A stretch of DNA of 64,000 nt from Catajapyx aquilonaris. Lineage: Eukaryota. Below the pieces are notes generated by a model that ran no database searches, was not told the DNA's origin, and saw only the letters and a list, made by a program, of their open reading frames with translations. The DNA lies in contig JYFJ02000031.1 in NCBI GenBank assembly GCA_000934665.2, forward strand, positions 124,001 through 188,000, written 5' to 3'. Every line of letters starts with the position of its first letter. The stretch's first letter is position 1. The position numbers and the translations under genes are program-made. This document shows, piece by piece, positions 869-50,200 of this stretch.

Positions 869-1247
869 GCATACATGTTTAGTGGATATTCATGGATCAG
901 GACAAGTATCGCCGCCTGGCGGAGCGTTTCACTTGCTTCATGTAAAGGAAAAGCTCCGCAAGGCGGCGATACTTGTGGGTATCCATGTATTTCCACCACT
1001 GCACTGTACAGGTTGGTTCAAACGGACGTGGTTGTGGTTGGGGATCAACCAATCAGCAATTTCGATCCGTGTGAACCCAATTAACACGTCAATTACATAA
1101 CATCCTAATTGTACATTTCAGAGTTCACCATCATTCGTAGAAGCTTCTAATCCAATTTTCTTCAAATGCCGCCAAAGAGTTGTACGTGTGGATGTGGTTA
1201 TTAATAAATGTTGATTTTTACACCTATTTTGTTGTTTGCTAACTTAC

Positions 1248-11369: not shown

Positions 11370-12524
11370 ATGACCGCGATGGCGACGGAAGAGCCGAAGC
11401 AATCCGCTGAAAGTGAGTTTCCATCAACTTGTCACATTGCAATGTCACGATGTCCCATGTACCTGCAGGGCTTCAGGTGCTCAAGTACTTCAGTCTGGTG
11501 ACCCTCACGCTTCAGAATGCGGCACTGGGTATCAGCATGCGCTACTCCAGGACACGCTCAGGCGACATGTTCCTGTCATCCACTGGTACGACCCCGTGAT
11601 TAGGCATCTACTGCGTTCTCCACATGTAACTGATGTTGTTACCTTTTGGCAGCTGTACTGACTGCGGAGGTTGTGAAGCTGGCAACCTGCCTTGCACTAG
11701 TTTTCCACCAGGAAGGTCGCAACGTTCAACGCTGGGCGTCTGCGCTTCATGCCAACATTATCGCTCAACCGCTGGACACGCTCAAAGTGTGTGTCCCTTC
11801 TGCGGTCTATGTGCTACAAAACAACCTTCTGTACGTGGCGGCCTCGCACTTGGATGCTGCCACCTACCAGGTCACCTACCAGCTGAAGATCCTCACCACT
11901 GCGCTGTTCACCGTTCTGATACTTAGAAGGCGCTTGCTGGCGTCGCAGTGGGCTGCGCTTGTCATCCTGTTATTGGGGGTCGTGATGGTGCAGCTGGCCG
12001 ATCACCAGGAGAGCAAGAAAAGTGCAGGCGGACCAGAACAGATCAGGATGGTTGGATTTTCGGCTGCCATTGCCGCCTGCTTTCTCTCAGGGTTTGCTGG
12101 AATTTATTTTGAAAAGATTTTGAAAGGCTCGGAAGTATCAGTGTGGATCCGTAATGTGCAACTTAGCTTCCTCTCCCTTCCATTTGGTCTTGCCACCTGC
12201 TTAATAACTGACTGGAATGCGATTCATACTAATGGATTCTTCTTTGGGTACGATGCCTTTGTCTCGTATCTGGTGCTCCTGCAAGCCACGGGTGGTCTGC
12301 TAGTGGCAGTGGTAGTCAAGTATGCCGACAATATTCTCAAAGGATTTGCCACGTCATTGGCAATTGTCGTGTCGTGCATTGCTTCGGTCTATCTGTTTGA
12401 CTTTGGGGTCACAGGTCAGTTTGCATTTGGGACTGCCCTCGTCATATCCTCTATATTCCTGTATGGGTATAAGCCACCTGAAAAGGCTAAGGTCACCAAA
12501 ATGGGGTTGACCACTCGAGTGTGA
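11370..12524 (+). CDS. SLC35A2: UDP-galactose / nucleotide-sugar transporter (SLC35A family)
   Basis: Exons 11370-11412, 11469-11585, 11653-12524: LKYFSLVTLTLQN..MRYSRT..FLSSTAVLTAEVVK..QNNLLYVAASHLDAATYQVTYQLKILTTALF..SGFAGIYFEKILKGS..VVKYADNILKGFATS. SLC35A3 cannot be fully excluded. Confidence 0.88.
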
Positions 12525-13369: not shown

Positions 13370-15184
13370 TTAGAAGGAGTCAAGTTGCTCTGACGACTGT
13401 CTCCTGCTGGGTGGCAGCCTCTCGACATTACTCTGACTGTGAGTGGCGGGTGCCTCCTCTACTGTTTGAGCCGTAGGTGGTCTGCGCCTCTGCGTGTAAC
13501 CTCCGCCCTCCTTGGGAACGAAAGGGAAAGGAGTCTGGTCCCTGGACATTCCGTCGTTGATGGACTCCCCTGAGGAGACGCTGATTGGGCTGGTCAGCTT
13601 GGTGTTTCCCCCGCCTGTGAACTGATTCTTGAAGGAGCTCAGGTTTGTGTTGAGTTCTGCACTCCCATCCGATATGGACCCATTTGCTTTCACCTGAAAA
13701 TCATGCACAGTGCCACCTTTAAAATGTTTGGTGGTTTTTCTACCTCTCAGATTAACTAATGAATATTTTGAAATTTAACTGAGGCCAGGTTGCATGACTC
13801 AAGATATTTGATCTTTTGATCTTACCATTTTAAAATTGTTGTTAATTGTTTTCAACAATGAATATTACATCCATTATCCATTTTTATATCACGATCAGTT
13901 ATGTAACTTGGCCTAAATATGACAGCAAGTAGTCTCATGAATATGTGAATAACGTTTGCATCATAAATTTTTTTCATGACGTGTTATTATAATTCAGATG
14001 TGCAAGCTGTAGCAAAAGTGTTGCAACAGCTGGACCTTTTGTATGTAAGTCTGTTATCATATTTTTATCAAGGCTAGTTAAAAAAAAAAAAGTAACTGCA
14101 GCCAAGGTGTAACAGCTGCAATTGCCCAATATTGTCTTTATCTCTATGGCCATCAACTTTACAATAGGATCAGCCATCCTGGATAAAACGCACTAAGTAA
14201 ATAACATAATAATTTTTTCTAAATTTTTGATTACTAGCCATCCCTTAACCCACCCAAAGAGTGACACATAAAATATTACAGTGAAAATTACCTGGTAGAC
14301 AGCGCAAAATGGATCGTATCCATCCTTGATAGTGAATCGAAGGTGACAGGCAGTAATCTGCTCTGTTGACAAAGTGTCATCTTGCGCCCGACCTGTCTCA
14401 CTCTCCAACTCCTTCTCAACCACCTCCTCAAACGTACCAGGCTTGACCGTAGTGCATCGCTCAACCAGTATGGTTTTAACTGAAGAGACAAAGACCTGTG
14501 ACTCAACCTACTTAATAATAACAAACAACCGTACCATTGTAACATCTGATCTTAATGGAGTCGATGTTGGCCGGTGCAGTCAGCGATATGACAAACTGTT
14601 CTGGAAACAATCCACCAGATGCCCAGAATGAGTTGTACACCCTGAAAGCCCAATTTCGGTGTTAATTGCCAACATTTACATATCTTATTAGTTATTACAT
14701 TAAGGTAGCAGACTTCAAGCTCAAATTAGCCTGCATATGAGACGACCTTGATACTATAGTGTACGATGGACTTCAAGGCATGGGGTTATTCACGTACATT
14801 TTTTTGTGTACACAGACTAACCGGACAACTCGGGTAGTCCAGAGTGGGCTACCCCTGACTACCTACGAAGGTGTAGACCTAACGGACTACCCTTAGTGAA
14901 CAACCCCTTGCTTCATGGACTTTGACCGGACTTCAGGGTGGGTGTATCATGTACGAAGGACTTCATAAGTGTCTAACCCCTTGGAGGACCTCTCTTGGAG
15001 GCTAATTCCAGCTTCAGGTCTGCTACCTTCCTGTAATAAGTGACTGCACATTATTCCAAACTGACCCGTCAATGATGTTGGTCGCAGGATACTTGACATG
15101 GTTGGTTGTGGCCATGGTGATCCTGGCCCCGCACGTCTCCTTCGCCAGATCTATTATGTCCCGCTGCATGTTCCTGTCCGACAT
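13370..15184 (-). CDS. IFT25: Intraflagellar transport protein 25 (HSPB11), copy A, with a C-terminal extension
   Basis: Exons ~15184-15066, 14641-14535, 14479-14292, 13693-13370: IDLAKETCGARITMATTNHVKYPATNIIDGVYNSFWASGGLFPEQFVISL..IKIRCYNVKTILVER..FEEVVEKEL..HLRFTIKDGYDPFCAVYQVKANG. This matches the IFT25 pattern NIIDG..FW..G.FP..F..LRF.I....D.F..V..V.A.G. Confidence 0.9.
14701..15029. mobile_element. MITE-like element in IFT25-A intron 1
   Basis: Ends TAAGGTAGCAGACTTCAAGCTCAAATTAGCCT ... AGGCTAATTCCAGCTTCAGGTCTGCTACCTT. Confidence 0.7.
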
Positions 15185-15476
15185 TTGCAAACTCTTCCTG
15201 CTGCTTGTAGGACGGACCCTATATAATATCGATCAGCCGCCCCTGCATATCAGCTAGTACATCAGTACCGCCATGATTTGAACTCAACTTACTTCTCATT
15301 ACTCCCGCTACCCATTGCGCTCCTGGCACCACCCTTCGCCCTCGGTACGTCGTCCATGGGTCTGGAAATCAACTCCGATTCACCCGTTCAGACGTCGTGT
15401 TCGAATGTTTAGAACACACGGTTTGGAACGGGCAGTGTTGCCAAAGGCTTGATCTGTCAACACTGTTTTTTCAAAG

Positions 15477-16690
15477 ATGGCCGGGCAGGACGGCGACGAT
15501 CTTGGGCTTGTCCGGCTGATGGAGACTATCCGTACAGCTAGGATGCGTTTGGCTCAGATGGTTTCCCTTCATCATCTTCACGGGGGTGTGCAGGGCAGAC
15601 CCAGCACCAGTACTGAGGAGGAGGAGGAGGAGCCCATCAAGAAGGTCGGGGTGCAGCCACTGTACCAGCTGGCAATGGACTGCGTGGCGGTCAATCTGGA
15701 CTTGCTGGACAGCCTCGTTGGGTTCCCCGTGTTCATTGGGGCACCGCTGTTTGAGCGGGCGGTGAAGCTTAGGGCCTTCAGGGAGACTGCGCCGGTCCAG
15801 GTGGCTCGACAAGTCAAGAAGTTTCAGGACGCGTATCCCGCTTTGCTTCTGACGTCCTGCAAGATCAGTTACAGCCCAAGTCTTAACAACCAAGTGATGG
15901 CCATACAAATCCTGTTTCAAACCGTCACACGATTAGACTTGAGCGGGATGTACCCGCTGATCACCACTTGCGCTGCCGACCTGATACGGCAAATGCCGGT
16001 GTTGAAGGAGCTGAACCTGACCAACTGCGGGTTGGACAACGAGACGCTGGACCAACTGACACTTCCAGGGCCCATCAGGCACAATCTCATCTGGATCAAC
16101 CTGGCAGGTATTCATTGCTGTTCATGTCACAAGTTCCAGTACTCCCAATGCAATTTTTAATATTTTGCAGACAATCCAATGTTGGGTCCAAAATCTGGTC
16201 ATTCCCTACTCAAGCTGATGGCTTTGGAAGAGTTGGTGCTCACAGACATGCTTGATCTGGTGAGTGCATAGCTTCATCCTTGCTACACTGCCATTGACTA
16301 TCTATTTACACTTGCAGAAAAGCACTGTTGTGATGTTGCAGTCGAAAGGTTTTGACACTGTGACTTCACCTCAGTCGAGAGACCCTATCGTCTCGTCCGG
16401 ATTGGCTGCTCCCATGCTTGGGGAATGGGAAGTTGAGGGAAAGGCACCCCCATCATGCAAACTGTTCTGTAAGCACTGCATAATACGCAAGCAGAGAAAT
16501 CTCCCATGCATTGTTCTGTACCGCCACCAATAGTTTAATACAACAACTGACCATTTCAGATTTTCCAGATCATCCTGTTACTATCAGCCGAATCATTACC
16601 CTTGCCAAAGTCCAACAAGCTGTTGCCCCTCCTGACAAACCACCACTACAAGCACCTCCCAACCTCGACCTTCTGAAACACTACATGTAA
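15477..16690 (+). CDS. LRRC42: Leucine-rich repeat protein 42-like, copy A
   Basis: Exons 15477-16107, 16171-16259, 16318-16468, 16560-16690 are in frame. Motifs LYQLAMDCVAVNLDLLDSLVGFP..LF..KFQDAY, LRR units, GLAAPML.EW and terminal DLLKHYM* resemble LRRC42 (N.D..DSL.GFP...KF.EAY...DLLNSY). Confidence 0.82.
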
Positions 16691-17123: not shown

Positions 17124-18656
17124 TTAAAAGGAGTCAAGTTGCTCTGACGACTGTCCCCTGCTGGGTGGCAGCCTCTCGACATTACTCTGCGAGACAGGTG
17201 CCTCCTCTACCGTTTGAGCCGTAGGTGGTCTGCGCCTTTGCATGTAACCTCCACCGTCCTTGGGAACAAAAGGGAAAGGCGTCTGGTGCCTGGACATTCC
17301 GTCGTTGATGGACTCCTCTGAGGAGACGCTGACAGGACTGGTCAGTTTGGTGTTTCCCCCGCCTGTGAACTGATTCTTGAAGGAGCTCAGGTTAGTGTTG
17401 AGTTCTGCACTCCCATCCGATATGGATCCATTTGCTTTCACCTGAAAATCACACACACTGTCATCCATAAAAATCAACTGTCCATAGGATCAGCCATCAC
17501 GAATAAAATGTACTAATTAAGTAAATAAGGTAATAATTTTACCCAATTTTTCATTACTTCCTGGCCTTGAACCCCACCCGAAGAATGACACAAAATATTA
17601 CAGTGAAAATTACCTGGTAAACAGCACAAAATGGATCGTATCCATCCTTGATAGTGAATCGAAGGTGACAGGCAGTAATCTGCTCGGTTGACAAAGTGTC
17701 ATCTTGTGCCCGACCTGTCTCACTCTCCAACTCCTTCTCAACCACCTCCTCAAATGTACCAGGCTTGACCGTAGTGCATCGCTCAACCAGTATGGTTTTA
17801 ACTGAAAAAATCAAGACCTGTGATCCGATCCCCACGAGTCAAATAACAACACTCTTGATAACAACCATGACGTACTATTGTAACATCTTATCTTAATGGA
17901 GTCGATGTTGGCCGGTGCAGTCAGTGATATGACAAACTGCTCCGGAAACAATCCACCAGACGCCCAGAATGAGTTGTACACACTGAAAGCCCAATTGCCA
18001 TGTTAATCTCCAACCTCTTATCACATATGTCACGATTAAAGTATAAGGTAGCAGACCTCAAGCTCAGATTAGCCTCCAAGATATGTGGGTCAGTTGGAGA
18101 ATAATTTCATCTTCAGGTCTGCTACCTTACTCCTAAAGTGAGTTTAAGGAGTAAGGTAGCAGACCGGATGGACAAATTAGCCTCAAAGCGGAGCATCTGT
18201 CTTGGAGGCTATTTTGAGCTTCGTAGGTTTTCTACCGTCGTACACTTTTAAGTAACTTTTAAAAGTCATTTAAAGGTGTACGATGGTAGCAAACCTGAAG
18301 CTCAAAATAGCCTCCAAGGCAAGAGAAGGAAGAGGGGAGGCTAATTGCAGCTTCAGGCCTGCCACCTAACTCCTGTGAGTGAGCTTCAGGTCTGCTCCCC
18401 TATTCCGTGACCTTCAAAGTAACTTAAAGGAGTAAGGTAGCAGACCAGACCTGAAGCTGAAATTAGCCTCTGCGATGAGCACCTGTCTAGGAGGCTAATT
18501 TAAGCTGCAGGTCTGACACCTGCACATTCCAGCTGACCCGTCAATGATGTTGGTCGCAGGATACTTGACATGGTTGGTGGTGGCCATGGTGATCCTGGCC
18601 CCGAACGTCTCCTTCGCCAAGTCCGTCATGTCCCGCTGCATGTTCCTGTCCGACAT
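17124..18656 (-). CDS. IFT25: Intraflagellar transport protein 25 (HSPB11), copy B
   Basis: Same 4-exon structure as copy A (~18656-18538, 17982-17876, 17801-17614, 17441-17124); open frame, near-identical core. Confidence 0.9.
18045..18520. repeat. Array of ~4 hairpin units with shared ~35-bp arms and variable loops, in IFT25-B intron 1
   Basis: Repeated AAGGTAGCAGACCTGAAGCTNAAATTAGCCTCCAAG followed by its reverse complement, at ~18045-18130, 18152-18238, 18286-18368 and 18434-18520. Confidence 0.8.
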
Positions 18657-18912
18657 TTGCAAATCCCTCCTGCTGCTTCGACGGACCCTATATCGATCCG
18701 ACGATCCCTAATAATGATTCTCTGCAGCTGTACTACTACTGTACCGCCAACATTTGAACCACAAGGGGGTTGGCTGGCTACTTCCCATTCTTCCCGCTGC
18801 CCACCGCTGCTGTCAGCATCACAGGTCCAGACAGACGTGTTCGAAGTTCGAACCGGTTTGGAACAGGCTTTTTGGAACACGCATGGATCTGGCAACACTG
18901 TGCATTTCAAAG

Positions 18913-20464
18913 ATGGCCGGGCACAACGATCGAGGTTTTGCCGGAATCTTTGAACAGCATATGCGTAGGATGCGTGGGGCAGCGATGCGGGGTCGTGGGG
19001 CCGAGTTCCGCATGTCTGCTGGACCTGGACCGGATGGCTTCCCCGACTGGCAGAACAACTTCCTGGACAGGGCCAGCACCAGCACAGGGCAGGTGGCAGA
19101 GGAGCCCAAGAAGGGGCCGGAGTCGCTCTACCAGCTGGCCATGGACTGCGTGGCTCTCAATCTGGACTTGCTGGACAGCCTCGTTGGGTTCCCAGAGTTG
19201 ATTGGAGGGCCGCTGTTTGAACGGGCGGTGAAGCTTCAGGCCTTCAGGAAGCCTGCGCCGGTGCAGGTGGCTGAACAACTGGAGAAGTTTCAGGATGCGT
19301 ATCCCGCTTTGCTTCTGACGTCCTGCAAGATCGGTTTCAACCCAAGTCTTACCAAGCACATGATGGCCATACAAATCCTGTTTCAAACCGTCACACGGTT
19401 GGACTTGAGCGGGATGTACCCACTGATCACCACAGGCGCAGCCAATTTGATACGGCAAATGCCCGTGTTGAAGGAGCTGGACCTGACCAACTGCGGATTG
19501 GACGAAGAGACGCTGAAGCAACTGACGCTTCCAGGGCCCATCAGGCACAATCTCATCTGGATCAACCTGGCAGGTATTCATCATTAAGCCACATTTGCAT
19601 CTAAAGCGGCGCGTTTACATGTGAGCAATTTGACAAGCCATGTTGTTGCCGAGCGAAGTAACCAATTGATTTTCGCCTCCCAACAATACAGGTTACTTAG
19701 GCGATGCACCGCTTGGCAATGACATCGCATGATCAAATCCCTCACATGTAAACACAGCCTTGTTTGTGTGACGATCTCCAATACTCTGATGCAATTTTAT
19801 AATTTTGCAGAAAATGGAGCTTTGGGTCCAAAATGTGTCCGTTCACTATTCAAGCTGATGGCTATGGAAGAGTTGGTGCTCCCAGCCGTGGCTGAGATGG
19901 TGAGCATGTAATTTCATCCTCACTACAATGCAGCTTATTGGTCTTTTACACTTGCAGAAAAGTGTTGTCATGACGTTGCAGTCAAAAGGTTTTGACACTG
20001 TGACTTCACCTCCGTCGAGAGACCCCATAGTGTCATCCGGATTGGCTGCCCCAATGCTTGAGGAGTGGGAAGCTGCTGAAAAGACATCCCCATCGTGCAG
20101 ACTGTTCTGTAAGCACTACCTGACATGCTGTATACCTAAAGTCAGTTAAACCAAAGAATGATCTGACGTCACATTCAGCCAGGGCTCTTCCCTCCTACCA
20201 TATCCCCGAAACGCTCTGCAAGAGGACTTCTGGGCATGCTGAGAAAACACTGCCAGTGTGACGTCAGATCATTCTTTTTGCCTAAAGGACTGGGCCTCAA
20301 CCAATAGTTTAATATTACAACCGAAAATTTCAGATTCCCCTGCTCCAGCCACTACCAAACGAACCATTACTCTTGTTAAAGTCCAACGAGCTGCTGCCCC
20401 TCCCAACAAACCACCACCACCACCACCCCCCCCAAACCTTGACCTTCTGAAAGACTACATGTAA
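18913..20464 (+). CDS. LRRC42: Leucine-rich repeat protein 42-like, copy B
   Basis: Exons 18913-19573, 19811-19899, 19958-20108, 20334-20464; PESLYQLAMDCVALNLDLLDSLVGFPELIG..; ends PPPNLDLLKDYM*. Confidence 0.85.
19604..19760. mobile_element. Palindromic MITE, family TTTACATGTGAGCGATTTGA (PIF/Harbinger-like)
   Basis: GCGTTTACATGTGAGCAATTTGA ... TCAAATCCCTCACATGTAAACAC; absent from the equivalent intron of LRRC42-A. Confidence 0.75.
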
Positions 20465-28100: not shown

Positions 28101-29148
28101 AATAACACGCGCGGTACATGTGATTGATCGACCTTCATTGTAGTATACGTGTTTGGTCTGGGGGAACGGTTTCTAAGAAATTCATTATTTCCCAGGGGTT
28201 ACCCCCACCCTGGACTTTCAAGTTCGGTGGTGTGGCGTGGAACTTATTTTTATATTGTATATTAACCTATTCATTTGCTAACAGGTGACAAATGACTGTG
28301 GAATGGCTGTCACACTAAATATGACGCAGTTGGATTGTCACCCATACCAAGCATACAACAGTATGTTGCATAACACTTCTATACTACTAGTGAAATTAAG
28401 AACTATATGTAAAAATATGTAAGCACTATTTCAGCAAAGATTTCCCTACAACTAGTGAGATCAAATACATATTAGTTAATTAAATAATTAAATAATGTTA
28501 GGTGTTAAAAATGTGCGTGCAGCAACAATACAGGTTGCTGGGATTAACAATCAATAGCTTATTCACCTTCAGATCCTCTTGAATGGGTTCAGTTACCATG
28601 TGCATAATTAATACATCCATAATTGAAGCAATTGTTCTTAGTTCATATTCGCTGAATATTACATTTCGTCAGTATATCAGTGTCCAGGAAGACGTTACTA
28701 AGGCATTTTGACAAACGGGTTCAGCTTGGCCTTCATGTCGTCGTACTTATGACAATTTCATACCCTTCTGAAATATTCACCCGTCTCCTCCAAAGCATAG
28801 GAGGCCAGAAAAAGCCATTCTCCGCATCGGACCTTATAATTCGGCAATCGCAATATCTCGTCTGTATATTTCTGCCTCCATTTACATATGGTTAAGTGTA
28901 TTTTTAGTGGACGGACCATGACATATTCATCGAGCTGGGTAATGGTGGCCCTATCGTAGTTCAAGTGCGAGCTAGTGACATGCGCCCAGGGCCAGCTCGG
29001 TTCGATGGGAGCTCAGGCTGTGGTTGGCTGGATAGGACATCAGACGGAAGACATGAGTCGCACGGCCAGGGTGGACATGGACACCTTTCCTTGCTACGTA
29101 CCGGCAGAAGTGTCGTGGTGTTGCCAACGATGTGATTGCAATTAGACA

Positions 29149-32100
29149 ATGGGAGCAGCTGGTAGCAGCAGCAGCAACAGTGCACAGGCCTTGCAGGAGG
29201 CCGACGGAGACAATGCGCCCAGAAGACGTGGTGCAGCCGCATTTGTCAGAACTGGAGGAACAGTCGCACCATCTTCGCCAGGGGCCAACCATCGGAAGGA
29301 TTCAGTCACCACCACCTACAGGTAAGTGTATATAATGGAAGATCTTTATTATACGAACGTTATTGTGGCTTTGCCGTGATTGTTGCTGTTGAACAACCCA
29401 CCCATGTTTCTTTTCGACAGCCACCATTCGAGCCAAGATGACCTGCACGAAGAAGTACAGGACTTGGAACGCACATTTAACAGCCTGGGCATCAGCGAGG
29501 GGAAGAGGAATGGTTCGACGACGTCCACGGTGTCGGAGGGCAGTCGAGTTCGGATCAGACGGATGAAGTTCAACGACGAAGATGACGACGCTGAGGACGA
29601 AGCCGACGTGGACGACAGCGACAGTGGCATCCGACCGCCAAACAGACGGATGAGCTCCTGGAGCGAAGGAAGACGTCCTCCTGAGAGAAAAACCAACAAC
29701 ACTGGTCGGAGTGTCATCAAGTTCAGCTGGGACGGTGGCGACGCCAGAAAAAACAGCGAAGAAGAGTGGGCGGAGTACAAAACTGTAAGTTGATGCACCC
29801 TGTACACATTGAACAATCAAAGTGCATAAAATTACCACAGGTGCATCAAATTATTACAAGTGCATAAAATATTACTACAGCTGCACAAACAGTTCTGTAG
29901 GTGCATTAAATGCTATTAAAGGTGCATAAAATTATTGCAGGAGCATAAAAGTAGTACATCTGGATTAAATTTACCATAGGTACTAAAGCTGATGCAGGAT
30001 GGATAATCATATGGAAATAATTTTATATACTATAGAATATATAAAAGGCACTACTCTAAACTACATTATTCACGCACTGCACCCGTTTAGTTGCATGTCC
30101 AAAATTTCGGGGGCACCCAAGTTGCAGTGTGGGGGTGCAAAAAATAAGCTGTGATAAGCAGTTTGGAAGGTGCATAATTTGAAGTAGCGTGACCGGAGGC
30201 AGTTATTTTGTCACAAGCAAAGGTCACAGGGGAGGGTAATGAAAACGCGACTTCCCAAACTGGAGCAAACATGGGAAGGGAATTACAGGGGCGATTTACA
30301 ATGGCATGGTCACGAGCCATTTAATGGTCGAAATATCCTGAAAAACTAGCAGACAAAAGTTGCAATGAACTCGAGGTTTTCTTTGCTTTGTTGACAGCAC
30401 AGTTGTTGACAATTGGTTTTTTTTCTGACATATTATTTGAATCAGAGCAGACCTGTGTATTTAACATGTGAGGTTAGAGACGCGGTTGAGTCCTTTGACA
30501 TTTTGGGCTGACAAAAGAAAGGGCCATTGAATCAGGACAAAAGACCGCTGTCAAACACTCGTCAAGCTTTCGTCGAGCTCCTGCTTTTGGTATCTTGTGC
30601 TAGCATATCCATATAAAGGAACCTACAGCGCAGTTGCTGAATTTTCAATTTTACAGAACTCTTACTTTAAAGTAGGTTATATGCCAATTTTCTGTTAGTA
30701 GTTTAAAATTTCAGTACATAATAACGTACGAGGTATATGTCGAAAGTCACCCACGACCATTACACTTATCTATACACAGTAAACATCACGTATCCAATAC
30801 TGTATTCACTCATATGCTTTGCCCAGTACCCGGAACCTCAAATCGATATCAACACTTGACCTTACCGGAAGCTCTTTCCAGACATTTTTCTAAGCTGACC
30901 TTCTAGCAAGAGATATCACTATAGCTACCATAAAAAATGAGACTAAAAGTCAAGCATGACGTGATTACAGGGGCTACAACACGCGAACTCTTTTATCGCA
31001 CCCTTAGTGTAGGCTGCAATATCCCTTTTCACGAATTATGTATATGACCACATATATTTATTTTCAGGGTCAGATTGAAAAAAAAAAGGTGTGTGCATAT
31101 AGATTAGCTTGTAAAGGGCACTTCCAGGTACCTATAAGTATTCGTGGCGAAAAGATAAGCGTGATAAATGTGAGGCAGTGACGTTCGTTCCAGTCACGAA
31201 ACTAATAGAGGTTTTGCAGCCCCACTGGGGGTCACGTTTCAGGAGGTTAATAACTTTTTTTTTTAAAGATTCATTTCTATACTGTGTGTCTGATGGCTCG
31301 ACCTTTTAGTTGCTTACATGCCATTTACATGGTTAGAAAAAGTTAGGTTGGACATATCAGAAAGGTGTTAGCATGCATGCAAGATTACGTTTCTGAATAT
31401 TACGATTATGACACCATGATGGATAGATCTATTAAGAGACGGTAATTATAGCCAAGAATTGAATGTGCTGGTATGTAAATATCAGGTGAAGATATCGATT
31501 AAATAATGGTTCTGATTAGGATAATATTTATTTAATGCAAATGTTATTTTAATGTCCTTTATTGCGCGACCAGTTCCGAAGTACAGAAGAGTACTGTACA
31601 AACTTAACCGAAAAGGACACTATTACTGGTAAATCAAATTACTCACCAAATTATTGCTAAAAATAACCAGAAGGAACAGTATTATGTGCTGAATGTACGA
31701 CCGAGTTTGAACTATTAATAGGATGTATCCTTAGTGCATAAAGCAATTTCAGCAAAATCAAGCTGGTAGGCCAAATGACAGTATTTTGTGGACAGAATTA
31801 TGGAGAAAATAATAGTGTGCAGAACTGTATCGTCATCTATATAAGGACTAAAGTAATGAAGCCAATACACTTGGGTAGAGCTCATATTACGGTGTCGGCT
31901 CTCCTTTTATGACCCACAAGAATTTATCAATATGTCGAACGTGGTGGTTTTCCCAATGAAGTTTCGACATGTCAATCTACAATCGCCATCAATATTAGCA
32001 GAGTTTCGCAAATGGCAGTTCATCTAATTGATTTCTGCACTTGCTAATTGCTACATAATAATTACAACAATTACTACTAATTAGTCCGCCATGCAATTTG

Positions 32101-34840
32101 GGCCTATACAACGTAACCTTTATTTCGTTACAGGCGCCAATTGAAGGCTTCGACCCTGAGAAATTCAAGAAGGCCAACAAAGGGGTAAGCACCATTTTAC
32201 TAATTAACTAATTATAAATTAATAAAATTTATGTAATTCATTACATTGCGGAATTTCCCAGGACCTCGTTTAATTGTTATTTATATTCATACATTTATGT
32301 TACATATTGTACTGTATTTATAGTGTGCATTATGAGCATGATGATTATGATGTAACCCCCTTCGCTTTCAGAATGAAGAATCTGGTATCGAAATCAAGCT
32401 GAACAACCACGTGCCTAAAACATTAAGGTACCGTTTTCATACTTCAAAATCGATGTCCCCCCCCCAACCCCCTCCGTACAATCCATATCGGTATGCCCTT
32501 GACAGTACGATACATGACATCGATATAGGAAGCAGGAACCGCACAATAATCCCTACGATAATTATTAAATCATAAGGTCGCGTTCACTATAGGTGTAAAT
32601 ATGGGTCATCATCACTTTGCTGAGTGTTATGTCCTTGGTTCGGATCTCACGCGACAGTTAAAAAAGCCAAGGAGGTCACGCCCTAGGAAAAAAAGAGGGC
32701 GCTGGATATAGTCGAACTGGGTCAGCGGGACCCTCCGACTCTGGTCAGGGGCGGCTCCCGAGGTCATCCCAAAGGCCTTTTTGGGGCCGACCCAAAGCCC
32801 AGATCTCCTTCCCAATCCTACTTTTAACTAGGTTCCTGCTCCAGTGGCCCTTTTCGTATTTAGGGGACATATGGAAGGACACATTCAGAGGACGAAGGTG
32901 TATTAGATCGATGGAAATTTACCTCTGGAGGTGTTGGTTCACACAGAGATTAATTATTCACGTGTACTTTTGTATGATCGATTTTTAGGGGGAATTCAAG
33001 GGCGGCTATGACAGCCGATATTCATGGGGTTGAGAGGTGTATCCGCTTGAGATAGGGCTGTATCCGCCAGGTATCCGCAAGGTAGGTTAATGGATATTCA
33101 TGGGGTGTCAATATGCAGCCATATCCATCACATATATGGCGCACTATTGCCACTCGCGGACGGACAGAGTCACAGACAGCAAATTCTATATGGCTCTTGG
33201 AATGTTCGCAACTTCTTAACCATTTCATTGAGGATTTATAAGGCTGAATCGGTTTGCCAATATGGGTTCTGTGAAGTCAATTTGTAAGGTTCGATTGGGG
33301 GATCTGTGTGGGTGGATAGTTTTGTAGTGTATGAAACTATTTCGCCTACGTTTCTGTCTGGGTTGGCGTGGGAATTGATGGGATAGGGCAATAGTGGTTT
33401 TCAGGGCGATGAACTTGCGGATGGTCTAAAATTTATGCTGGGAAAATGAGGATATGCGGCACGAGATTGGTTTAGATTGGGAGAGGGGGGGAAGGAATTG
33501 CTTTTTCCCGGAGCCATATGCACGAAATGTCGATTTCATCAGGAAACGGAAGTGGACATTGCCTGAGATATGAAGGAATTAAATTGTAATGGTATAAATT
33601 CTCATCACATTCGACAACTTGCAATATTGGTTGTTGCAGTTTAGCAATATGTGAAAAAAATGACATTTTAAATGGAATGAATTTTTAAATAATTTGCATA
33701 ATATTCGCTGCTCACTTTGGAAACAAATTTTGGTTACAATCATATGCATATATTGCGGTAATTAGCATAGTGCAATTAACACACCAATTAAAGTCCTTAT
33801 ATGCAGTCTAACTGGTACTTTCCAAGAATTACTGGAATATTTTAGTGAAAATGTTTATAAAACAGTGCAAGCTATTGTGACTATGAAAGCCGTACCCTTC
33901 ACTCCAGTGCAGTGGAATGGCCATTGTTATTGGAAATTATGGATGCATTATTAATATGCCTACCACATAAACAACTCAATAGTCAGACAAACTGTACACA
34001 TATGGCTGGTGCCAGCATACGCTCAAGGCCTGTATGCTGCATATAATACACCATGGTTTTAGTTTTCGCAAAAGAATCCCTTAGCCTACATGTAATTGGT
34101 TAGCATTTCTTTCATTCATTCGCAAAAAAATTACATTGAAGTTATTCTCAAACTTCTTTGACTTAGCACCTTTTTGGGAAAAACATTTCATGGCCCATCT
34201 ATCCCTTTATGATTTTTAAAAAATGGTTATGAACATATACATTTGTTATCAGCCAGCCAAAAAAAAAAAAAAATCTTAGAATTCTTGCTCTTTCGTAAAT
34301 GACGAGTGTGCGGCTAAGAACTTTATTTACACCTAAATAATAAATTGGTTACCCTGCGACTTGACCGACCATTTTTATTGGGGAACAGGAGAACCTCCGT
34401 CACAGTCAGTAAACCCATTTAAAATCATTCATACCCCGTTATCAGCCGGAGTCTCTTTAGGGGGAGGGGGGAGTTCATCCCAATTTTGTTTTGACTGGAA
34501 CTCTTTGCTTTCATTTTTACTTTTGCTTTTTGGGATAGGGACGGAAGGAAGCATCTGTGACCTAATTATTTAGGAAGCAATCCCAGAATTCTCCTGGGGG
34601 GACCGTGGGGAACCACAGAAAACCACTGTTAGGATTGCCGGCCCTGGGACTTGAACCCAGGACCTCCCGATTAGCAGTTGAACACCTTATCCACTCCACC
34701 TACTCTCATCAATATTTCTAACACTCACTTTTCCATTGTACAGCTCTCATGAGGTGTCTGAAATGCACCCCAACGTGCCATCATATGACCTGTCCGAGCA
34801 GCAGCTGCTGGCTAGCATTGAGCGAGAATATGTGTTCTAA
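29149..34840 (+). CDS. Predicted N-myristoylated, largely disordered protein (~245 aa) with a cystin-1-like C-terminal motif
   Basis: Five phase-consistent exons 29149-29321, 29421-29784, 32134-32184, 32372-32427, 34744-34840: MGAAGSSSS...RRRGAAAFVRTGG...APIEGFDPEKFKKANKG...PSYDLSEQQLLASIEREYVF*. AATAAA at ~34997. Confidence 0.8.
29821..29958 (+). repeat. Degenerate ~20-bp minisatellite (GTGCATAAAATTAYYACAG-like), ~7 units
   Basis: Recurring GTGCATAAAA units downstream of the exon 2 donor. Confidence 0.7.
34570..34702 (-). mobile_element. tRNA-derived SINE fragment
   Basis: The minus strand reads GGTGGAGTGGATAAGG (A-box-like) ... GGGTTCAAGTCCC (B-box), followed by a GGTTTTCTGTGGTTCCCC..CCAGGAGAATTCTGGGAT body. 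It does not form a full cloverleaf. Confidence 0.7.
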
Positions 34841-35040
34841 AAATCTGTTACCTGTGAACCATTTTGTTACATGTCACTGTCTAGACTGTCAGTAATTAGC
34901 TTACTATGTAGGCTAATGCTAACAGTACAGCCTGTTAGTAATCATGTGTATTATAACAAGCAAAAAAATGCCTGTACATAAACCGTCCACATTTGTAATA
35001 AAACACCACAATGACTTGTAATGGTATGTTTAGTTTAATA

Positions 35041-35992
35041 TCACATGTGATAGTAAGTTCTGCTGTTTGCTGAGAGAGACAGAAGACACGAAGAGGCTTT
35101 GTGGATATGATACGAGCAGCTACGCCCAGCGCAATTGCCTTGAAGACTCATGGCAGAGCGGAGTTTCACGTAAAAGTTGGCTGGACAACGGATTATGGCC
35201 CGCCGTGATGCTTGGTTGTACTTTAGGATGTCAACAGTCATGGCAGCCCCCACCTGAAATATCAAAGATTGTTTACCATTGTTCTGCTGCAGTGCAAAAG
35301 GTACAACAATGCATTGCAGACACCTGATAAGGCCGCATTTACATGTGAGCGATTTGATCAGCAATATGCAGTGATGATCATCGCTGATCAAATCGCTCAC
35401 ATGTAAACACTGCCTATATCTGTTGGTTATGATATAAATTTAAAAGCAACCAGTAATAATAGCATACCTCCCCAAACAGGGACTTGATTCCATCCATAAT
35501 GTTGGCCTTAAAAAACACCGCATTTACAATCGGCGCCTTGTTCTCATCTTCAAAAATCCTGCAACAAGCTCCGATAAGTTGTACTGTCAAACCAACACAC
35601 TACGGTCATGTAAACCTCGCAGTGTACCAGATGGCACAAATATCAGCACACGGCTGCATCACAATATCTTTCAGATGGTCATCCTTTAAACGCGGCAGGG
35701 ACTTAGCATTTGGAAAGGCTATTTAACGCACAGGAATGCAACTCTGCCATACTTGAACATCAGGAAATTTTATTTATTATTTATTGTACTCCATGTTGTG
35801 CCATGTAGGCACTTTGGGGGAATGTTAAGAAATTTCTACCCATGACATGTTCACCAAATCTGACTTCCAAGTAATGTTTGCTCCATCTGGTGGCACAATA
35901 GCATGTAAATCACTAGCAAGGCATATCTTCTGCCTTTCCACATTGACGGCAACTCACAGAGAAACGTCCAGATAGCAGTGGTCTTCCCCCAT
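35041..35992 (-). CDS. RPP14: Ribonuclease P/MRP subunit p14 (Rpp14/Pop5 family)
   Basis: Exons 35992-35958, 35558-35468, 35253-35041: MGEDHCYLDVSLIFED..FKANIMDGIKSLFGEVGAAMTVDILKY..AIIRC..VKLRSAMSLQG..SSCLLSLSANSR. Confidence 0.88.
35329..35416. mobile_element. Palindromic MITE, TTTACATG family copy
   Basis: TTTACATGTGAGCGATTTGATCAGC ... GCTGATCAAATCGCTCACATGTAAA. Confidence 0.8.
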
Positions 35993-41274: not shown

Positions 41275-44200
41275 TCAGAAGCTGCCGAACCCCAAGTCCA
41301 TCCGGTCCTGCTTTATCCGGTCCAGCATGTGATTCTGGAGATATCCTGGCTGGCCATATGCGGAGTTGCTGTACGGAGAAGGATACGCATAGTTGGGGCT
41401 CGGGAGGTGGAGGCCATGCGCCGCTGCTGCTGCCGCTGCCGGGGAGTATGGAAAGCCACCTGGCGGGCCTGCTCCGTATGATCCACCACCTCCACCCGGA
41501 TGGTGAGGGTGGTACTGCCCATATGGGTATGGCAGTGGGGGTGAGTTGACTCCTCCCATTGGCCCTCCCATTCCACCTCCCCCACCCATCCCGCAGGGGC
41601 CGCCCATCATCGATGAGGGTCCTCCAGGGAAGATCCCATTTCCAGCACCTCCCATCATGTGGTGGCCTGACCCCATCAAGGAAGGATAACCTCCCATCGG
41701 CGACCCCATCCCAGGGTAGTTTGATGCCAGGCTGGACACGGAGAAGGATGACGGTGATGGGGTGGGCATGTCTGGAGGGGGAGGGCCTCCCCCTCCTCCC
41801 CCACCTCCCCCTCCACCCCCTCCTGGTGTGGAGGGGGCAGTGTTGGCTCCCGGAGTGCTGCCACCACTTCCTCCACCTCCACCAGCTAAGGAGCTGACAG
41901 AGAATGTGGAGCCACCACTGCTGCCAGGCCCACTTCCGCCTTGCTGGCTATACCTATCCAGTGGAAAGCTGTGTTATACAAAAAACAGAAAACAGGATGG
42001 GGGGAAAACGAGAGAGGAAAGAAGCAGGTTAGAATGTGTGTTGCACACTCTCAAAATCAGTAAATGTGTATGCACAGTGGCTGAGTTGGACAGCAGAGTA
42101 GTCCACACATGCCGTAAGGAGGCCTGGATACGACCATTACAACCTCAAACAAATCAGAAATGTAATTACGTAATTGTGTAACTGAGTAGCTGGCTACCAA
42201 CAGGTGTTCTAGGAATGGAAATACTGTATTTTTTCATACGTACTGAAAATTTCAAGACATTTCAAAAAGGGTGTTGGTGTATCAACTATTGACACTGATA
42301 GTTCAATAACACCACAGCTAAAATCTTTAAGCATTGGAATAGAAAACGATTTTTCAAGCATCAGATTTTCAAACATAGGTAAAATTTTCCTGAAATTATT
42401 AACAATTGAACGGTGTTTGTGCCAACCCACTAAAATGTCAAAATTGAGTTAAACCTAGGAACATATGCGTATACCCAAAGGATTCATTCAGTTAAAATCA
42501 ATCTGACGAAATCTGCATACTTTTGCCATAAATGACCGAAAAGGACCCTTAATTTCACAGCTGTGACATTCAAAGCCCCTTTTCTCAACACTGCACTTGT
42601 AACCACCATCCAATTATACAGCACATTATGGGCCCTCCTCTGGACACTAATAGGTAACTTGCCCATGGCAATTCAAATGTTAGGAGTAAATGAATTACCC
42701 CATGGGTAAAATAACCTGTCTGCTGTCTACACTCAAGCTGTAGATTAATTATTTTTAAACACTTTGGATTGGCCTTGAGAAGCAATTTCAAGTGAGCATT
42801 CAATCATTTCCTTTTGTTTTGTAGGAAGCTGCTTGTTACATGTTGGCACCAGAGTGACGCAAAGTTTTTAAAATTTCACATTTCACATTTAAGACTTACA
42901 GGCAATCTTGAACCAGTAAGCCCTTAACGTTGGTTAAGGTCTTCCTTGTAAATAATAATTAATCAGATTAACGCAGCCAGATGGTCAACTGAGGCATACG
43001 ACATCTTGAGCTTGTACAGCTATTCTTTATCAACTGTCCATTTTCAACCATGTGCAATAATAAAATATAATGGGAAAGTTAACTATCATGCTTAATGACA
43101 AATAATACAAACGTATATTACAAAATTTTGCTCACAATTCTTTCCTATCTACAGTATATTGAAAGAAATATGTTACATATAAAAACAGTGATATGTATTC
43201 AACTGGGTACAGCCCACTTTGTACTATATCAAACATCACAATAATTTACATTCTACATTCATTTTCTCGCATGCAGTACACCTGAAGTGCGAAAAGCATT
43301 GTCTGCCAAGTACTCACGTATTGGGTGGGCAGTAGTGTGGGCTGTAGTTTCCACTCCCTGCGCTATTACTGGCAGTTGTGTATGGAGGGCTTCCAGGGTA
43401 GCCTAGGTAAGAGGGTCCCTCTCCATAATGTGGAGGTGGGGGAGGTGCATGGGGGGATCCGTAGTGGTCCGTTGCTCCTCCTCCAGCTCCTCCTGCCCCT
43501 CCATGGTTTCCAGACCCATCACCATCAGCAATGCTGGGGATCTGATCCACAAGAGATTCCAGACCAGAGAGAGACTTAGAGGTCATGTCTTGGTGGCTTA
43601 CCACCCCGACATTGGGATTGGGCGGCTGCTTGTGGTGGTGGTCAAACTCGGGGTTGGAATTTTGCGAGTAAGCCATTGCTGAGTGGGGCTCGGAGTCCAC
43701 TGAGTAGCTGCCATAACTTGGGTAGCTGATACCTGGAGAAGAACAACGTTTCAGTTAATCATGAATGCCAGATCTTCAGGATTTTGCATGCTTTCCTCCT
43801 GGAAAGGAGGTAACACTGAAACTCCATGTCCTACAAAAAATGTATGTTGCAACAATATATTACATTGAGATCCTACAGCTGTAATGATAACAAATAGGAG
43901 CATTAGGGTTCAGAGCTGTACAACTTCAACCTCATGTTAACAGTGACAAATACCACTTCCGTCACTACTTTGACAGCAGTTACCTCAAGACCAATTAGAA
44001 CGCAGCATGTCAGAAGAACAGGAGAAATCATATTTACCTTGAGAATCTGATGATGCCCCAGCTGGGCTGGGAAACCTGCACTCCCCACCAGATTGGTTGT
44101 TGCCATTTGCAGCACCATCTGCACTTCCCTCATCCTTTGGTGCATCTGATGCGTCCTCAGGCATGGATGCTGGTGGCTCAAAATCAGGTGGACCTAGACT

Positions 44201-47200
44201 TGGGGAAGTTGGGGGAGGAGATCCTAGATTATGCTCTGAAGAAATGGCAGCACTAATTTCAGAGGAGAGGTCGGAGTGGGTGTATGCTTGTGATGATGCC
44301 TGCGGGGATGCTGGAGCTGTCGGATATGCCTGTGTTGAAACTGGGGATTGGTGGTAGGCATGTGAACCAGGTGATTGGCTGGGGTTCTGCATGGGGAACA
44401 GCTGTGGCTGCTGTGAGCTGCTGTACGGTGATGCCATGTTCTGCTGTGGGTTATAACCACTGGGCGATTGGATTCCATTTGGTGAAAAACAGTTGGGCGC
44501 TGAACCTGAACATGGGTCCTGGAGCATGTCTGGGAGCCCATTAACAACATTGTTGTTGTTGTTGTTGGTGGGGGGTGCAGGAGGAGGGGTGTCCTCAGTC
44601 TTAATCTTCTTTGGACGCCCTCTCTTCTTCTTAGGTGTATCACCATTTTTGGCCGTCTCTTTCGGCCTAGTGTCCTCCCGCCTCTCTTCTGGAGGCCCAC
44701 CATCTTCTGGCTTAATTTTCTTAGGTCGACCACGCTTTTTCTTCACTGGTAGGTCTTCCTTCATGCCTCCATGGTTCAAATCAGTTAAATCGCCATTTGC
44801 CTGCTTTCCATACTCTGAGTAGTAGTTCCCTGATGCTGCAGCTGCAGCTGCAGCAGCGGCAGCTTGATTAGCAGCCTCTTCCTTGGCACGGTTCTCTGCT
44901 TCCACCTCCATAAAGTGCTTCAACTTGGATTCCGTAAATACCAGTTCTGATTCATCAAGCGTGGCCACCATGCCGTTCAGGTAATCACGAAACTTTTTGA
45001 GTGCTGCATAAAATGGGACCTTGTCGGCTGCACGGGGGAGCTGGGCACACCGGGCACTTGAAGATGGCATCACCCAGATATACTAAGAAATAGGACAAAA
45101 GATAGAGTCTTACAAAATGTATAATGTTAAAAAAAACCATCTACCAGAGAGCATCATTAATATCATAGGGATCACCAAAATCAGCTTCCCTTATTGCTAC
45201 CATGTATTGGAACTGCTGCGATCATCAACCTACTGCCACTCCTCAACATTTCCCTACCATTCCCTCCATCCCACAAAAAGAAGAACCATCCAATTTGGTA
45301 CATGATTGTCACCATACATGGTGATGCACCACTCAGGTCACCAATTCAGAGGGAGTAATAATGGATTGCTTAGCCCGGGAACCACATCAATGAGAAGCAA
45401 TGATCTGCGCTACGTTCAATTGTCTGGATTGCACTCTCTCTTTCAACTGGTTTTTGGAGTCAATAATCCATCATTTCCGCTCTTGAATTAGAGACTGGAG
45501 CAACAAGGTGGCCAGACAAGTTTCTGTAAGCATCAAGCTAGTGTCTTACACATTTTCTTAGCTCACAGCTTCACGTATTGTGGCAAAATACTCTTCACTT
45601 GATTCTCTGACACATTCGCAGAGAGTCCACCAAACCTTGCCACTTTGCCACTCAACACATCATCACTGCCAACGTGCCACCAGCAAACTGAAGGGTAAAA
45701 GTTATAAACCACCCATAATGCGATCTGTTTCATACACACATGCACCTGCACAGCAGATGTATGGAACATATCACGTCCTTGACCAACCCCATGGAAAATG
45801 TTACATGCATGCATAATACAGCAGGACAACAATGGTTCTGTAACTGCATGTGCCTGGCAAGCAAAATGATGTGTAAATGAGATGGAAAAGAATCACCTGG
45901 GCTCAGATATAATGGGAAATCATACCAGATATCATATTTTAATAAATAACAAGGACACATGAATTAAGAGTAATTTTGAAGGCGACAATCCTAGGCATTT
46001 TACAAACCAACCTGCTTGTCCACTGCTTATTGCATTACCTTTTGCTAATATTGCAAGCAAATTTTGTATCTTTCCTGCTGGATCACAAGGGTGCAGGCAC
46101 TTAAAAACTGTGATTGTCTTTTGTGTACTTCGATAGCGTTAGGTAACCAGACCTTGGCTGCCTAGTGCACAATGGCAGGAAGCAAAAGCCATATTGACCT
46201 TGATAATGAAGAATCAAGCAAATTGATAAAGATTATGTTAGTCGTTTCCTATGAAACAAAACCAATACCTCTCCTTGTCTTTATAGTGAAACCACTATTT
46301 TGTCTTGGTAAATAGATTAAAACTAGTCTAAACTGACAGTCTGCACATACGAGATACTAGATGCAGTGAAAAGGTGTCTATTATGAAATTTTGTTTGGTC
46401 CTGATCAAGGACATAACTGCATTTCATTGCAAATAGCAGGCACTTGTTTAGCATTAACAAATTACATGGAATGGAGTGAAGTTGCTACACATAGGTTTCA
46501 GTTTACTGCCAATCTTAATCACAATTACAGCATATCTTGATGTAAGTGCCCTTTAATTAATCATGGATCAGTGCACATAGCTGGCCCAACATGAAGCTGA
46601 CCTGATAATTATAACCCCCTGCAAGACGCACGTGAGAGGCAGGAAGGTGAAGGGACATGGAGACAAGACCTCAGATGTTGGAGAGACATATCATACTTTC
46701 TACTTTAAGACCAGAATGATGAACACCAATGTCCATTTTGTTTTGGAATACGAAGGGAAAATCCAACGTGAATTCCTGTCAAGATGCAACCTTACACAAT
46801 CTTATACTTTGTATTTGGGTGTCTTGAGAATTGGGCTGTGCAATTTACAAAAAACGACATGAAGCTAACACAGAGAGCCATGCCTGAGTGGTTGTTTCAT
46901 CTCATAAAAACATGGCATGTACTTGTGGGAGGGTGAGCAAGACGGCTGGTTTGGAAAGTAATGCACTGCTAGTGGGGTGGCCAAGAATATATTCAAGACA
47001 CGGCAACATCTCTTGACTTGCTGGAACACATGTGGATTGATAATAATTTTGATCAAATATTCTCTGAGAGCCTGAAAGTCTTCTGCATTAGCAATGATCT
47101 TGCAGCAGTTCTACATGATAAATTGGGGTGGTTTTTATCTTACATGGGCAGGTAGCCTCTGGAAATCATGCAAACTACCCAATCTTGAAGTCAGCTGATT

Positions 47201-50200
47201 TCTATCAGGTAGGGTGTGTTCATCTCAGCATGGATATCAACATGTACAAAAGTCAACCAGAGCTTCCATTTGTCTCTGAGCATTCTGAATGGCTGCTGGT
47301 TGTTATGGAGTGCTCCCTAGCAAGCCTCACCCAGCCTCTTTGGTATGTGTTATAATTTTATCTTTCACATACATGGCATATGCAAGTCTGTAACTTATAG
47401 CTATGGGCTGTTCCAGTAGGTGTGCCCAGTTAATGGTTTTTATGGTTTCATTGCCCAGTGAGTGCAAGGCCCTTCTGGGGGCAGGTGTGTCCAGTTGAAG
47501 TTGCAGAGATCTAACTTGTGCTATATGCAACATAGGGTGGAATTTTTGTCCCACTGCTACTTACTCTAACTTAGCAGTACCATTGCTAACACGGGTACTG
47601 CTAAGTTAGCCATAACTAGCAGTGGGAGAAAAATTCCACCCTTACTGTTCTTGGGTTATGGAGATGCCAGTAAAAATTACTCGGAGACATGGTGGTTTTA
47701 GATACAACCAGGAGGTAATCTGTTGGTATTATATTTTAAACTTTCATTTTGTCCTGATGCCATGTGAACCACAATGCCATTCTCTGTAAAGCACATACTG
47801 TCTGATTTATTTTACTCCCAACACATGTCACCAAGCCCCCTTCTCTCCATCCGTCCACCCCTCCACGGACTGCACTTGTTACCAACCTAATCTCACACAC
47901 GTGGTCACCGCTGTCACCATCAATGCAATATATAGTCAACGCTGTTCTTTCCTTACCACGACAAGGGAATACGCAGTGTCAATGAACACTCAAATTAATA
48001 ATTTATATCACAAATGTATGCTGCATGATTTAATTACAACATTGTTTGTGATACCACAAGTACAGTCCATGGAGGGGTGGATGGGTGGAGGAGAAGGGGG
48101 CTTGGTGACATGTGTTGGGATTAAAATAAATCAGACATACGTTAACTGGTTCTTTACATGTGGTGCTTTTTTTAAAAGGTAGCAATAGTCACTTACCGTA
48201 CTGGTCCCATCCACTAACTCAGGTTGCCTTCCAAAAGGAAAATCCTTCTTCCCAGAGAACACCTCATAGATGAGCTTTCCATTGAAGACTGCTATTTTGG
48301 GCTTGAACTTTTGCAGTTTCTCTAAGAGGATTTGGCTTCCTGTAAAAGACAAAGAGGTGCGGGGCCACAAAATTATTTGAGAATTCAGGAAGCACAAATT
48401 ATCAGAAAGAAAAGGACTCACCTTCTTTTATCTCTCTCCTAGTGAGATCAGCACTTCCTTTTGTAGCTCTGGACACCATGTTGGTGAAGCCAACGCCATA
48501 TTGTAGAAGCTTGTAGTCATCGTCTGCTGTCATGGGCTCAGGAATAAGTCCGGAGAGGTACAAGCACTTCCCTGCGCATCGAATCAGGGACCTTGTTATT
48601 GATCACATCCAAAAATAAAAAGGCCCCAAGGAGGAATACATGAATGCACATCCATTACTGAATGGCTGTGATATATCTTTAACAAATTCTATCTCCACAT
48701 TTTCAGATGGCTTGGCATCCATGTACTTCAATCTCCTTGTCATCTCCTAGCATACTCACAGAAGTGGTTCCCTGGTCCTGCATAGTGGTGACCCTTGTAA
48801 GCAGCAAACAAGCCAGGATTGATGCCAATCTGCCAGTAACAAAACGACAAGTTACATATGAGCAATGCCCTTTGACGCATGTTGATACTCACAATTATGA
48901 TGTCCAGATTAGTCATTAGGTGATCTGGAAGTGTCCGCCGAGACACCTCCTCCTCAGACATGCCATTGAACCGGTCATGCTTCCTCCTCTCCTTCACTAT
49001 GTGCTCCCCCATCTCCTCCTTTACCTTCTTCTTCTTCTTCATGGGGTCCACCATGGCATAAGGCTCTGGGTTATCCATCCTAAAACACACCCATTACATT
49101 TACATCCATAATTGAATTGGCAATATTTCAGTATGTGCCTAAGGTTATACTTTCAAGCATATGAAAGACACTTCAAATCTAATCACATGCATTTGTCTTT
49201 CCTTACAAACAGGTGTACAAGACTGGATGAAAGACATCCATTGGAACATCACCCAACAACCGTGCATAGTTGCACAAATGAAAACGATACACACCCATCC
49301 TCTGGCTTTATCTTCTTTTTCCTTCCCCTCTTCTTTGGCACGTTCTGCATCGGCATGGGCATGGCAGGTGGTGGGACGCCCATGTGTGGATCATCGTCCA
49401 CAAAACTGTATGGGTCTTCTGGAGGGGGTTCTGTCTTTATCCTCCCAGCACCCAATGTCAGGTTCACTGGTTCTGAAGTCTCCATGTGAGCCTTCATCTC
49501 CAGGTCAGCACTGGTTTCATAACCGTCGTCTAGCGGTTCCTGTTTCATGGTGCTGCTGCTGGAGAGAATCTCCACTTTAGGTCTCCTTTCGGATATCATG
49601 AGGGCAGTGACTCTTAATTTTTCAGCCAACATTGGTCAGGTGGCATTTTTGAAATGTACAAGCGAAACTGGTGTAAGAACATGAGCAAAAGGAAGGCATT
49701 AAGTAACAGAACATCGCAAACACATGTGGCAAACTGATAGTGGCAACCACACAACATACACCCACTGCTTTAAAATTTTCTATTGCCTGCAGTTCCCTTC
49801 TTACCTTCTACCTACTTTTTGCTCATGTTTACACAAATGACCTTCATTCACATTAAGCAGAATTCCATACATGCAAGCAAATATTTAAAAATTTCACATA
49901 AAATTGACGTAACCAAACTTTCCTAAAGCCCAATGCGACCACATGAAGGATTTCACACATTATATTTGCCACACTGGGGAAGACCATACATTCACGTGCG
50001 ACGATTCTTCATCAAGGCCTGATTAAATTCTACTGTCAATATCAACATTACTTTTGCACAAGTTTTTACAGTCTCTTGTAATGGCCAAAGTGCTCAACAA
50101 CTTAAATTATTATGAAAAATACTCCACTTTAAGGCCTGTCACTTCTAATTTCGGTCAAAACAATAATTTCTGTGAAAAGTCAGGTTATGAGAAGATCATT

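Follow-up and report, generated by a model that had tools for sequence, protein, structure and literature searches.

We describe a gene of five small exons at positions 29149-34840, plus strand, of a stretch of 64,000 nucleotides (nt) from contig JYFJ02000031.1 of Catajapyx aquilonaris (the window), and consider the 246-amino-acid (aa) protein that it is predicted to encode a probable divergent member of the cystin-1 (CYS1, PF26203) family, at chances that we put at about even: the two ends of the protein would be conserved and its longer middle unrelated. Cystin, a small ciliopathy protein of which little is understood, is missing from the cpk mouse, and mutations in it occur in a rare human disease resembling autosomal recessive polycystic kidney disease. 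The five-exon model itself very probably represents a real protein-coding gene, judging by the codon usage and the splice signals of its exons.

Structure of the gene

The start codon at 29149 stands in the context ACAATGG and directly follows an in-frame TAG, which lies 3 nt upstream. Exon 1 (29149-29321; 173 nt, residues 1-58, residue 58 in part) ends at a donor GT at 29322. Exon 2 (29421-29784; 364 nt, residues 58-179) ends at 29784, an end at 29785 breaking the frame; left unspliced, it carries the protein to a stop nine bases later (...EYKTVS, stop at 29791-29793), and joined straight to exon 5 it is out of frame. Between exons 2 and 5 the model places two micro-exons. Exon 3 (32134-32184) has 51 nt in phase 0/0 and encodes residues 180-196, APIEGFDPEKFKKANKG; since its length is divisible by three it can be skipped in frame and could be used as a cassette exon. 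Exon 4 (32372-32427; 56 nt, residues 197-215) has the length that supplies the frame shift required for reading exon 5 (34744-34840; 97 nt), which encodes residues 215-246 and the TAA stop codon at 34838-34840. A likely polyadenylation signal, AATAAA, lies on the same strand at 34997-35002, 157 nt 3' of the stop codon.

Joined, the five exons give a reading frame of 741 nt on the plus strand, that is, 246 aa and TAA. The initial annotation had proposed five GT-AG exons joining in phase into a product of about 245 aa, and both features are borne out by the joined model. The N-terminal stretch and the C-terminus that it had singled out were found as well, as RRRGAAAFVRTGG (residues 25-37) and PSYDLSEQQLLASIEREYVF.

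Two introns carry repeat-like sequence. At the start of intron 2, just past the donor of exon 2, a degenerate direct repeat on GGTGCATAAAATTATT occupies 29819-29970 in three 52-nt copies of 63-100% identity. The minus strand of intron 4 at ~34590-34700 has by eye the look of a putative element of the short interspersed nuclear element (SINE) class derived from a tRNA, with a GGTTCAAGTCCC-type box; ARAGORN and Rfam report nothing there, and their scans of the whole window gave no match.

The predicted protein and its two ends

By composition the protein appears largely disordered: 67% of its residues are disorder-promoting and 19% hydrophobic, there is no cysteine, and 44 acidic residues stand beside 33 basic ones. 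The middle encoded by exon 2, acidic and rich in Ser and Thr, is probably disordered, with an acidic run at about residues 109-124 (DEDDDAEDEADVDDSD) and the basic cluster RVRIRR at 100-105; the other basic clusters are RRR at 25-27 and KFKK at 189-192.

Exon 1 encodes the N-terminal sequence MGAAGS (residues 1-6) and, at residues 25-37 (29221-29259), the basic and Ala/Gly-rich stretch RRRGAAAFVRTGG. MGAAGS fits the pattern Met-Gly-x-x-x-Ser, and the Gly2/Ser6 myristoylation consensus that had been read into it is thus predicted from the sequence. Passages of PMC8246649 describe myristoylated peptides with small residues at positions 3-5 as high-affinity ligands of UNC119, from which ARL3 alone releases them. 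Residues A3, A4 and G5 are all small, so that the predicted N-terminus follows this published rule for high-affinity UNC119 cargoes. The likeness extends to the known cargoes that the same passages name (NPHP3, GNAT1, LCK and NSMF; the 'USC motif'), in which Gly2 is followed by small residues at 3-5, here A, A and G; the short N-terminal signal is all that is common to them and the protein described here, and the remaining sequence is unrelated.

At the other end, exon 5 encodes a conserved-looking C-terminal motif, PSYDLSEQQLLASIEREYVF (34778-34837), and the protein closes with ...ASIEREYVF. Modelled alone with AlphaFold2 from a single sequence, the last 31 aa form one helix over EQQLLASIE (residues 18-26 of the peptide), with a mean predicted local distance difference test (pLDDT) score of 71.8; this is a weak single-sequence model. 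Fold prediction and the searches described below alike took single-exon pieces and not the joined protein, which lowers the sensitivity of the searches.

Comparison with cystin-1

Mouse cystin is described, in parts of PMC10929748 and PMC6678300, as a raft-associated protein of 145 aa that is myristoylated at G2 and carries an AxEGG motif at 28-35, its ciliary targeting requiring both the lipid and the motif. The C-terminal 25 aa of the mouse protein are required and sufficient for binding to necdin in the yeast two-hybrid system, as stated in sections of PMC3859662; in the same sections the G2A form of cystin goes to the nucleus via an N-terminal nuclear localization signal (NLS), and a predicted NLS1 lies within residues 1-20, deletion of this segment having removed it. 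Necdin is a MAGE-family protein. An excerpt of PMC10011728 places CYS1 among the ARL3-dependent myristoylated ciliary cargoes.

The protein encoded at 29149-34840 resembles cystin in its Met-Gly...Ser myristoylation signal at the N-terminus, in a basic Ala/Gly-rich stretch at about residues 25-37, where the mouse targeting motif occupies 28-35, in its largely non-globular appearance, and in a functional-looking segment at the extreme C-terminus, which in mouse is the necdin-binding part. The gene differs in having five coding exons, two of them micro-exons, and the protein in its long acidic middle; the motif GFDPEKFKKAN, which the initial annotation placed on a micro-exon of its own, is a putative addition to the cystin plan.

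The one computed tie to cystin comes from the ESM Atlas, and we treat it as a lead only. The Atlas cluster nearest to the last 31 aa (82 aa, wholly eukaryotic, chordates being the commonest phylum) has the Pfam family PF26203 'Cys1' on 18% of its 134 members. The match scores 0.80, with 165 of 256 features shared, and PF26203 is common to three of the ten best family-bearing matches. Cystin had been named before the Atlas was queried, and the first place of a Cys1-bearing cluster among the representatives of 7.7 million clusters is for that reason weightier than its score alone, since chance gives no cause for the top match to be of this one family.

Several observations weigh against kinship with cystin. 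The Atlas score is below the tool's own reliability line of 0.9, a score of 0.8 is attained by one in three shuffled proteins, and by the Atlas calibration agreement on a family in three of ten matches usually means the wrong family; exon 1, used as a query, gave no usable Atlas match. A regular-expression search of the 246-aa model found no exact A-x-E-G-G, the nearest sequence at the equivalent position being A30-AFVRT-G36-G37 alone. The protein is ~100 residues longer than the mouse protein (246 vs 145 aa), and its residues 1-20 have a net charge of -2: the basic residues begin at position 25, with RRR at 25-27 as the sole basic cluster of the N-terminus, which is a poor fit to a myristoyl-electrostatic anchor.

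The sequence searches also belong on this side, as all of them were blank. In word-index searches exon 2 gave 170 candidates among longer proteins (none at E<=1) and its open reading frame (ORF) two among proteins of near length (none at E<=10), and the exon 5 ORF (52 aa, of which 21 are intron-derived) gave six among longer proteins, again none at E<=10. A phmmer search with the last 31 aa returned 0 matches at E<=0.001 among 1,835,955,588 proteins, a threshold that a match at 13 of the 20 motif positions, about the number at which the approximate CYS1 ending given in the initial annotation would agree by eye, would miss by a rough estimate, and a search of PDB sequences returned 0 at E<=10. 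Since by that rough estimate a match of this kind is too weak for a library-wide E-value, the blanks do not refute kinship with CYS1; what they indicate is that the collections searched hold no close orthologue with a near-identical tail. Scans of exons 1, 2 and 5 with a Pfam copy that is without PF26203 gave noise only (E 0.4-0.6), and this blank is therefore uninformative on the Cys1 family.

The deep homology and two-ended architecture that the initial annotation had claimed for the gene therefore stand in part: the MGxxxS N-terminus and the Atlas lead for the C-terminus speak for them, and the missing exact AxEGG and the exon 1 query without an Atlas match speak against.

The most serious competing explanation, which we regard as unlikely, is that the gene is real and no homologue of cystin: it would encode a lineage-restricted, disordered, myristoylated protein, perhaps with a non-ciliary function, that has its helical C-terminal peptide in common with cystin by convergence or chance. 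The blank searches, the sub-threshold Atlas score, the exon 1 query and the unconserved AxEGG fit such a protein, as does the middle 60% of the sequence, which resembles nothing in the Pfam scan. So does the recurrence of the string LLASIEREY in unrelated proteins. When the C-terminal motif was back-translated and searched for in metagenome contigs, the strict pattern gave 0 matches and a relaxed one gave three loci, none with C-terminal context. Two of these (L002, 124-162, and L003, 2001-2039) have LLASIEREY inside longer bacterial ATPase-like ORFs and were set aside as chance matches, and the third (L001) is an unrelated ORF. Identities of nine residues thus recur in very large collections; the bacterial matches are not an independent estimate of chance, however, because the pattern had been built from the motif itself. 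What speaks for cystin over convergence is that the family had been named before the Atlas placed its cluster first, that the motif stands at the extreme C-terminus, like the necdin-binding segment in the sections of PMC3859662 cited above, and that it is paired with a G2 myristoylation signal, as in cystin. If the kinship fails, the gene encodes a further disordered protein confined to its lineage, and interest in it is slight; if it holds, a known family gains a new and divergent member, perhaps the first to be described from a non-vertebrate, and the protein is no new kind of system.

The literature offers few points of comparison. A full-text search for a 7-letter C-terminal motif retrieved no paper. 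In the initial annotation cystin is said to be usually treated as vertebrate-restricted, and among the cystin papers reached by searching we found no discussion of the protein outside vertebrates. A table in a review (PMC13510785, as far as the table and its surrounding text go) places a fly gene 'Cys' beside CYS1, without evidence, and one supplement file of PMC5850483 has no mention of CYS1. Among invertebrate proteins, Caenorhabditis elegans CIL-7 is likewise myristoylated and cilium-associated; parts of the paper that describes it as a regulator of ciliary extracellular vesicles treat cystin too (PMC4571341). Kinship with CIL-7 was rejected: the same parts describe CIL-7 as a coiled-coil protein, whereas disorder prevails in the protein described here, for which a single short helix is predicted.

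A proposed mechanism

The best explanation of these features is a lipid-anchored, disordered adaptor in which a UNC119-type myristoylated N-terminus is combined with a helical C-terminal docking peptide, both of these functional ends being common to it and cystin. Gly2 would be N-myristoylated co-translationally, and A3-A4-G5 would turn the lipidated N-terminus into a high-affinity UNC119 cargo, which ARL3-GTP would free from UNC119 at the membrane of the cilium. At the place of the mouse targeting motif lie the Arg cluster (25-27) and, after it, the Ala/Gly stretch; these may strengthen binding to the membrane or help to keep the protein in the cilium. The last ~20 residues would fold into a short helix, serve as a docking peptide and be the counterpart of the necdin-binding C-terminal 25 aa of mouse cystin. 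A role in sensory or sperm cilia, as suggested in the initial annotation, is pure inference.

Taken jointly, the observations also allow a wider reading, which we offer tentatively and think somewhat doubtful: cystin would be older than vertebrates, and the ancestral animal would have had a myristoylated ciliary protein delivered by UNC119 and ARL3, whose C-terminal helix docked onto a MAGE-homology protein, with the single ancestral MAGE/NSMCE3 in the place of necdin. Should this hold, the signalling from cilium to nucleus in which cystin and necdin are proposed to act in kidney disease would form an ancient module that can be studied in simple animals, and the two conserved ends would define a minimal functional cystin. 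The narrower claim of a divergent cystin relative outside vertebrates would, if true, already show by comparison which parts of cystin matter: the present evidence points to the lipid anchor and the last ~20 residues, and not to AxEGG. It would also suggest that the C-terminal peptide had an earlier partner, and would open cystin function to tests in a simpler organism.

Support for the five-exon model

Splice sites were scored with generic metazoan weights that come from general knowledge and are not fitted to this species. Among the 353 AG dinucleotides in 29100-34900, the acceptors of exons 2, 3, 4 and 5 rank 1, 2, 3 and 6, and among the 315 GT dinucleotides of the same interval the donors of exons 1, 2, 3 and 4 rank 1, 11, 4 and 29. 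Codon log-odds were trained on ten hand-chosen long ORFs of the window, five of them with a Pfam match at E<=1e-5 and a sixth with a sub-threshold AT-hook match only. In all five exons the frame of the model scores highest of the six frames. The null consisted of stop-free intron and flank segments, each exon being compared with those of its own length. The score of exon 1 (17.5) was reached by none of 685 such segments and that of exon 5 (10.0) by none of 3,179; for exon 2 (27.7) these regions offer no stop-free segment that is long enough. Exon 3 has a tail fraction of 0.0017 among 6,867 segments, and exon 4, the weakest exon of the model, one of 0.067 among 6,494. Taken together, splice and codon evidence lifts the five-exon model well beyond chance.

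A second alternative, a little less likely than an unrelated real gene, is that the model is partly wrong: the gene could end with exon 2, or exon 5 could belong to another transcript, exons 3 and 4 being constructs that restore the frame. The 5-kb gap between exons 2 and 5 holds ~1,800 candidate micro-exons, that is, open AG..GT intervals, so that some in-frame bridge can always be found and it is the ranking that decides. By combined splice and codon scores exon 3 comes first and exon 4 seventh among the 1,835 candidate internal exons, and as a pair they rank 2 of 64,289 in-frame two-exon bridges; their acceptors, moreover, are the second and third best of the interval. First place goes to a bridge that differs from this pair in the end of exon 4 alone, which it puts at 32490 (27.5 vs 26.7). 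As this variant scores best and preserves the frame too, the position at which exon 4 ends is ambiguous. With the donor at 32490 exon 4 would have 119 nt and 21 more residues in frame, giving a protein of 267 aa; among the splice sites of the model the exon 4 donor alone is ambiguous in this way, between 32427 and 32490. Its ambiguity and its low rank count against the model, as do the tail fraction of exon 4 and the frame of a direct join between exons 2 and 5.

For exon 5, the codon score beats every null segment, the stop codon is followed by AATAAA, and no other upstream exon is apparent from which another transcript could reach it. The next gene is on the opposite strand: an ORF at 35041-35436 (minus strand) with a match to the Rpp14/Pop5 family (RNase P/MRP subunit, E 2.9e-06) faces the gene tail to tail and bounds its 3' end, and this convergent arrangement leaves room for the gene to end at the modelled position.

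That the locus is non-functional, a pseudogene or a set of chance open frames in GC-richer DNA, is very improbable: the searches found no homologue and long antisense ORFs overlap exon 2, but the frame of the model is the best in each exon, the splice sites are top-ranked and nothing interrupts the frame between an ATG in favourable context and a stop codon followed by a polyadenylation signal. The antisense ORFs (29302-29850 and 29349-29816) were also considered as a real gene and rejected, having lower codon scores and no Pfam match.

Surroundings in the window

The neighbouring genes in the window do not, as we take it, recall the neighbourhood of human CYS1. A piece of a nucleotide-sugar transporter gene at 11634-12524 (plus strand) runs for 296 uninterrupted codons (PF04142, E 8e-117), and a GPATCH1-like gene at 58123-61670 (minus strand) carries DUF1604 (E 2.2e-38) and G-patch (E 2.6e-06) on long exons that follow one another, with uninterrupted coding stretches of 228 and 271 codons. 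Such long uninterrupted coding is presumably unlike the vertebrate orthologues of these genes, and by the look of its gene structures the animal that has the candidate cystin relative is no vertebrate, which makes the 'invertebrate' of the initial annotation plausible.

Elsewhere in the window, a fragment of a sodium:neurotransmitter symporter gene lies at 1201-1755 (minus strand; PF00209, E 9.5e-22). Large Gly/Pro/Ser-rich exons with AT-hook-like motifs at 41275-45082 and 49249-49635 (minus strand; Pfam AT_hook E 0.0042, just under the cut-off) are probably parts of one long gene for a chromatin-binding protein. Two tandem paralogous ORFs at 15453-16160 and 18718-19587 (both plus strand) share 81% identity across 173 aa (E 5e-100), and neither matches a Pfam family; judged by eye, the C-terminal half of each resembles leucine-rich repeats (...LDLSGM...LKELNLTNCGLD...). 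About 2 kb upstream of each lies one of two minus-strand ORFs, 13370-13774 and 17124-17489, with near-identical translations (...DFQVKANGSISDGSAELNTNLSSFKNQFTGGGNTKLTSP...), the former without a Pfam match. Given the pairing of these ORFs with the tandem paralogues, a whole unit of ~3.7 kb seems to have been duplicated.

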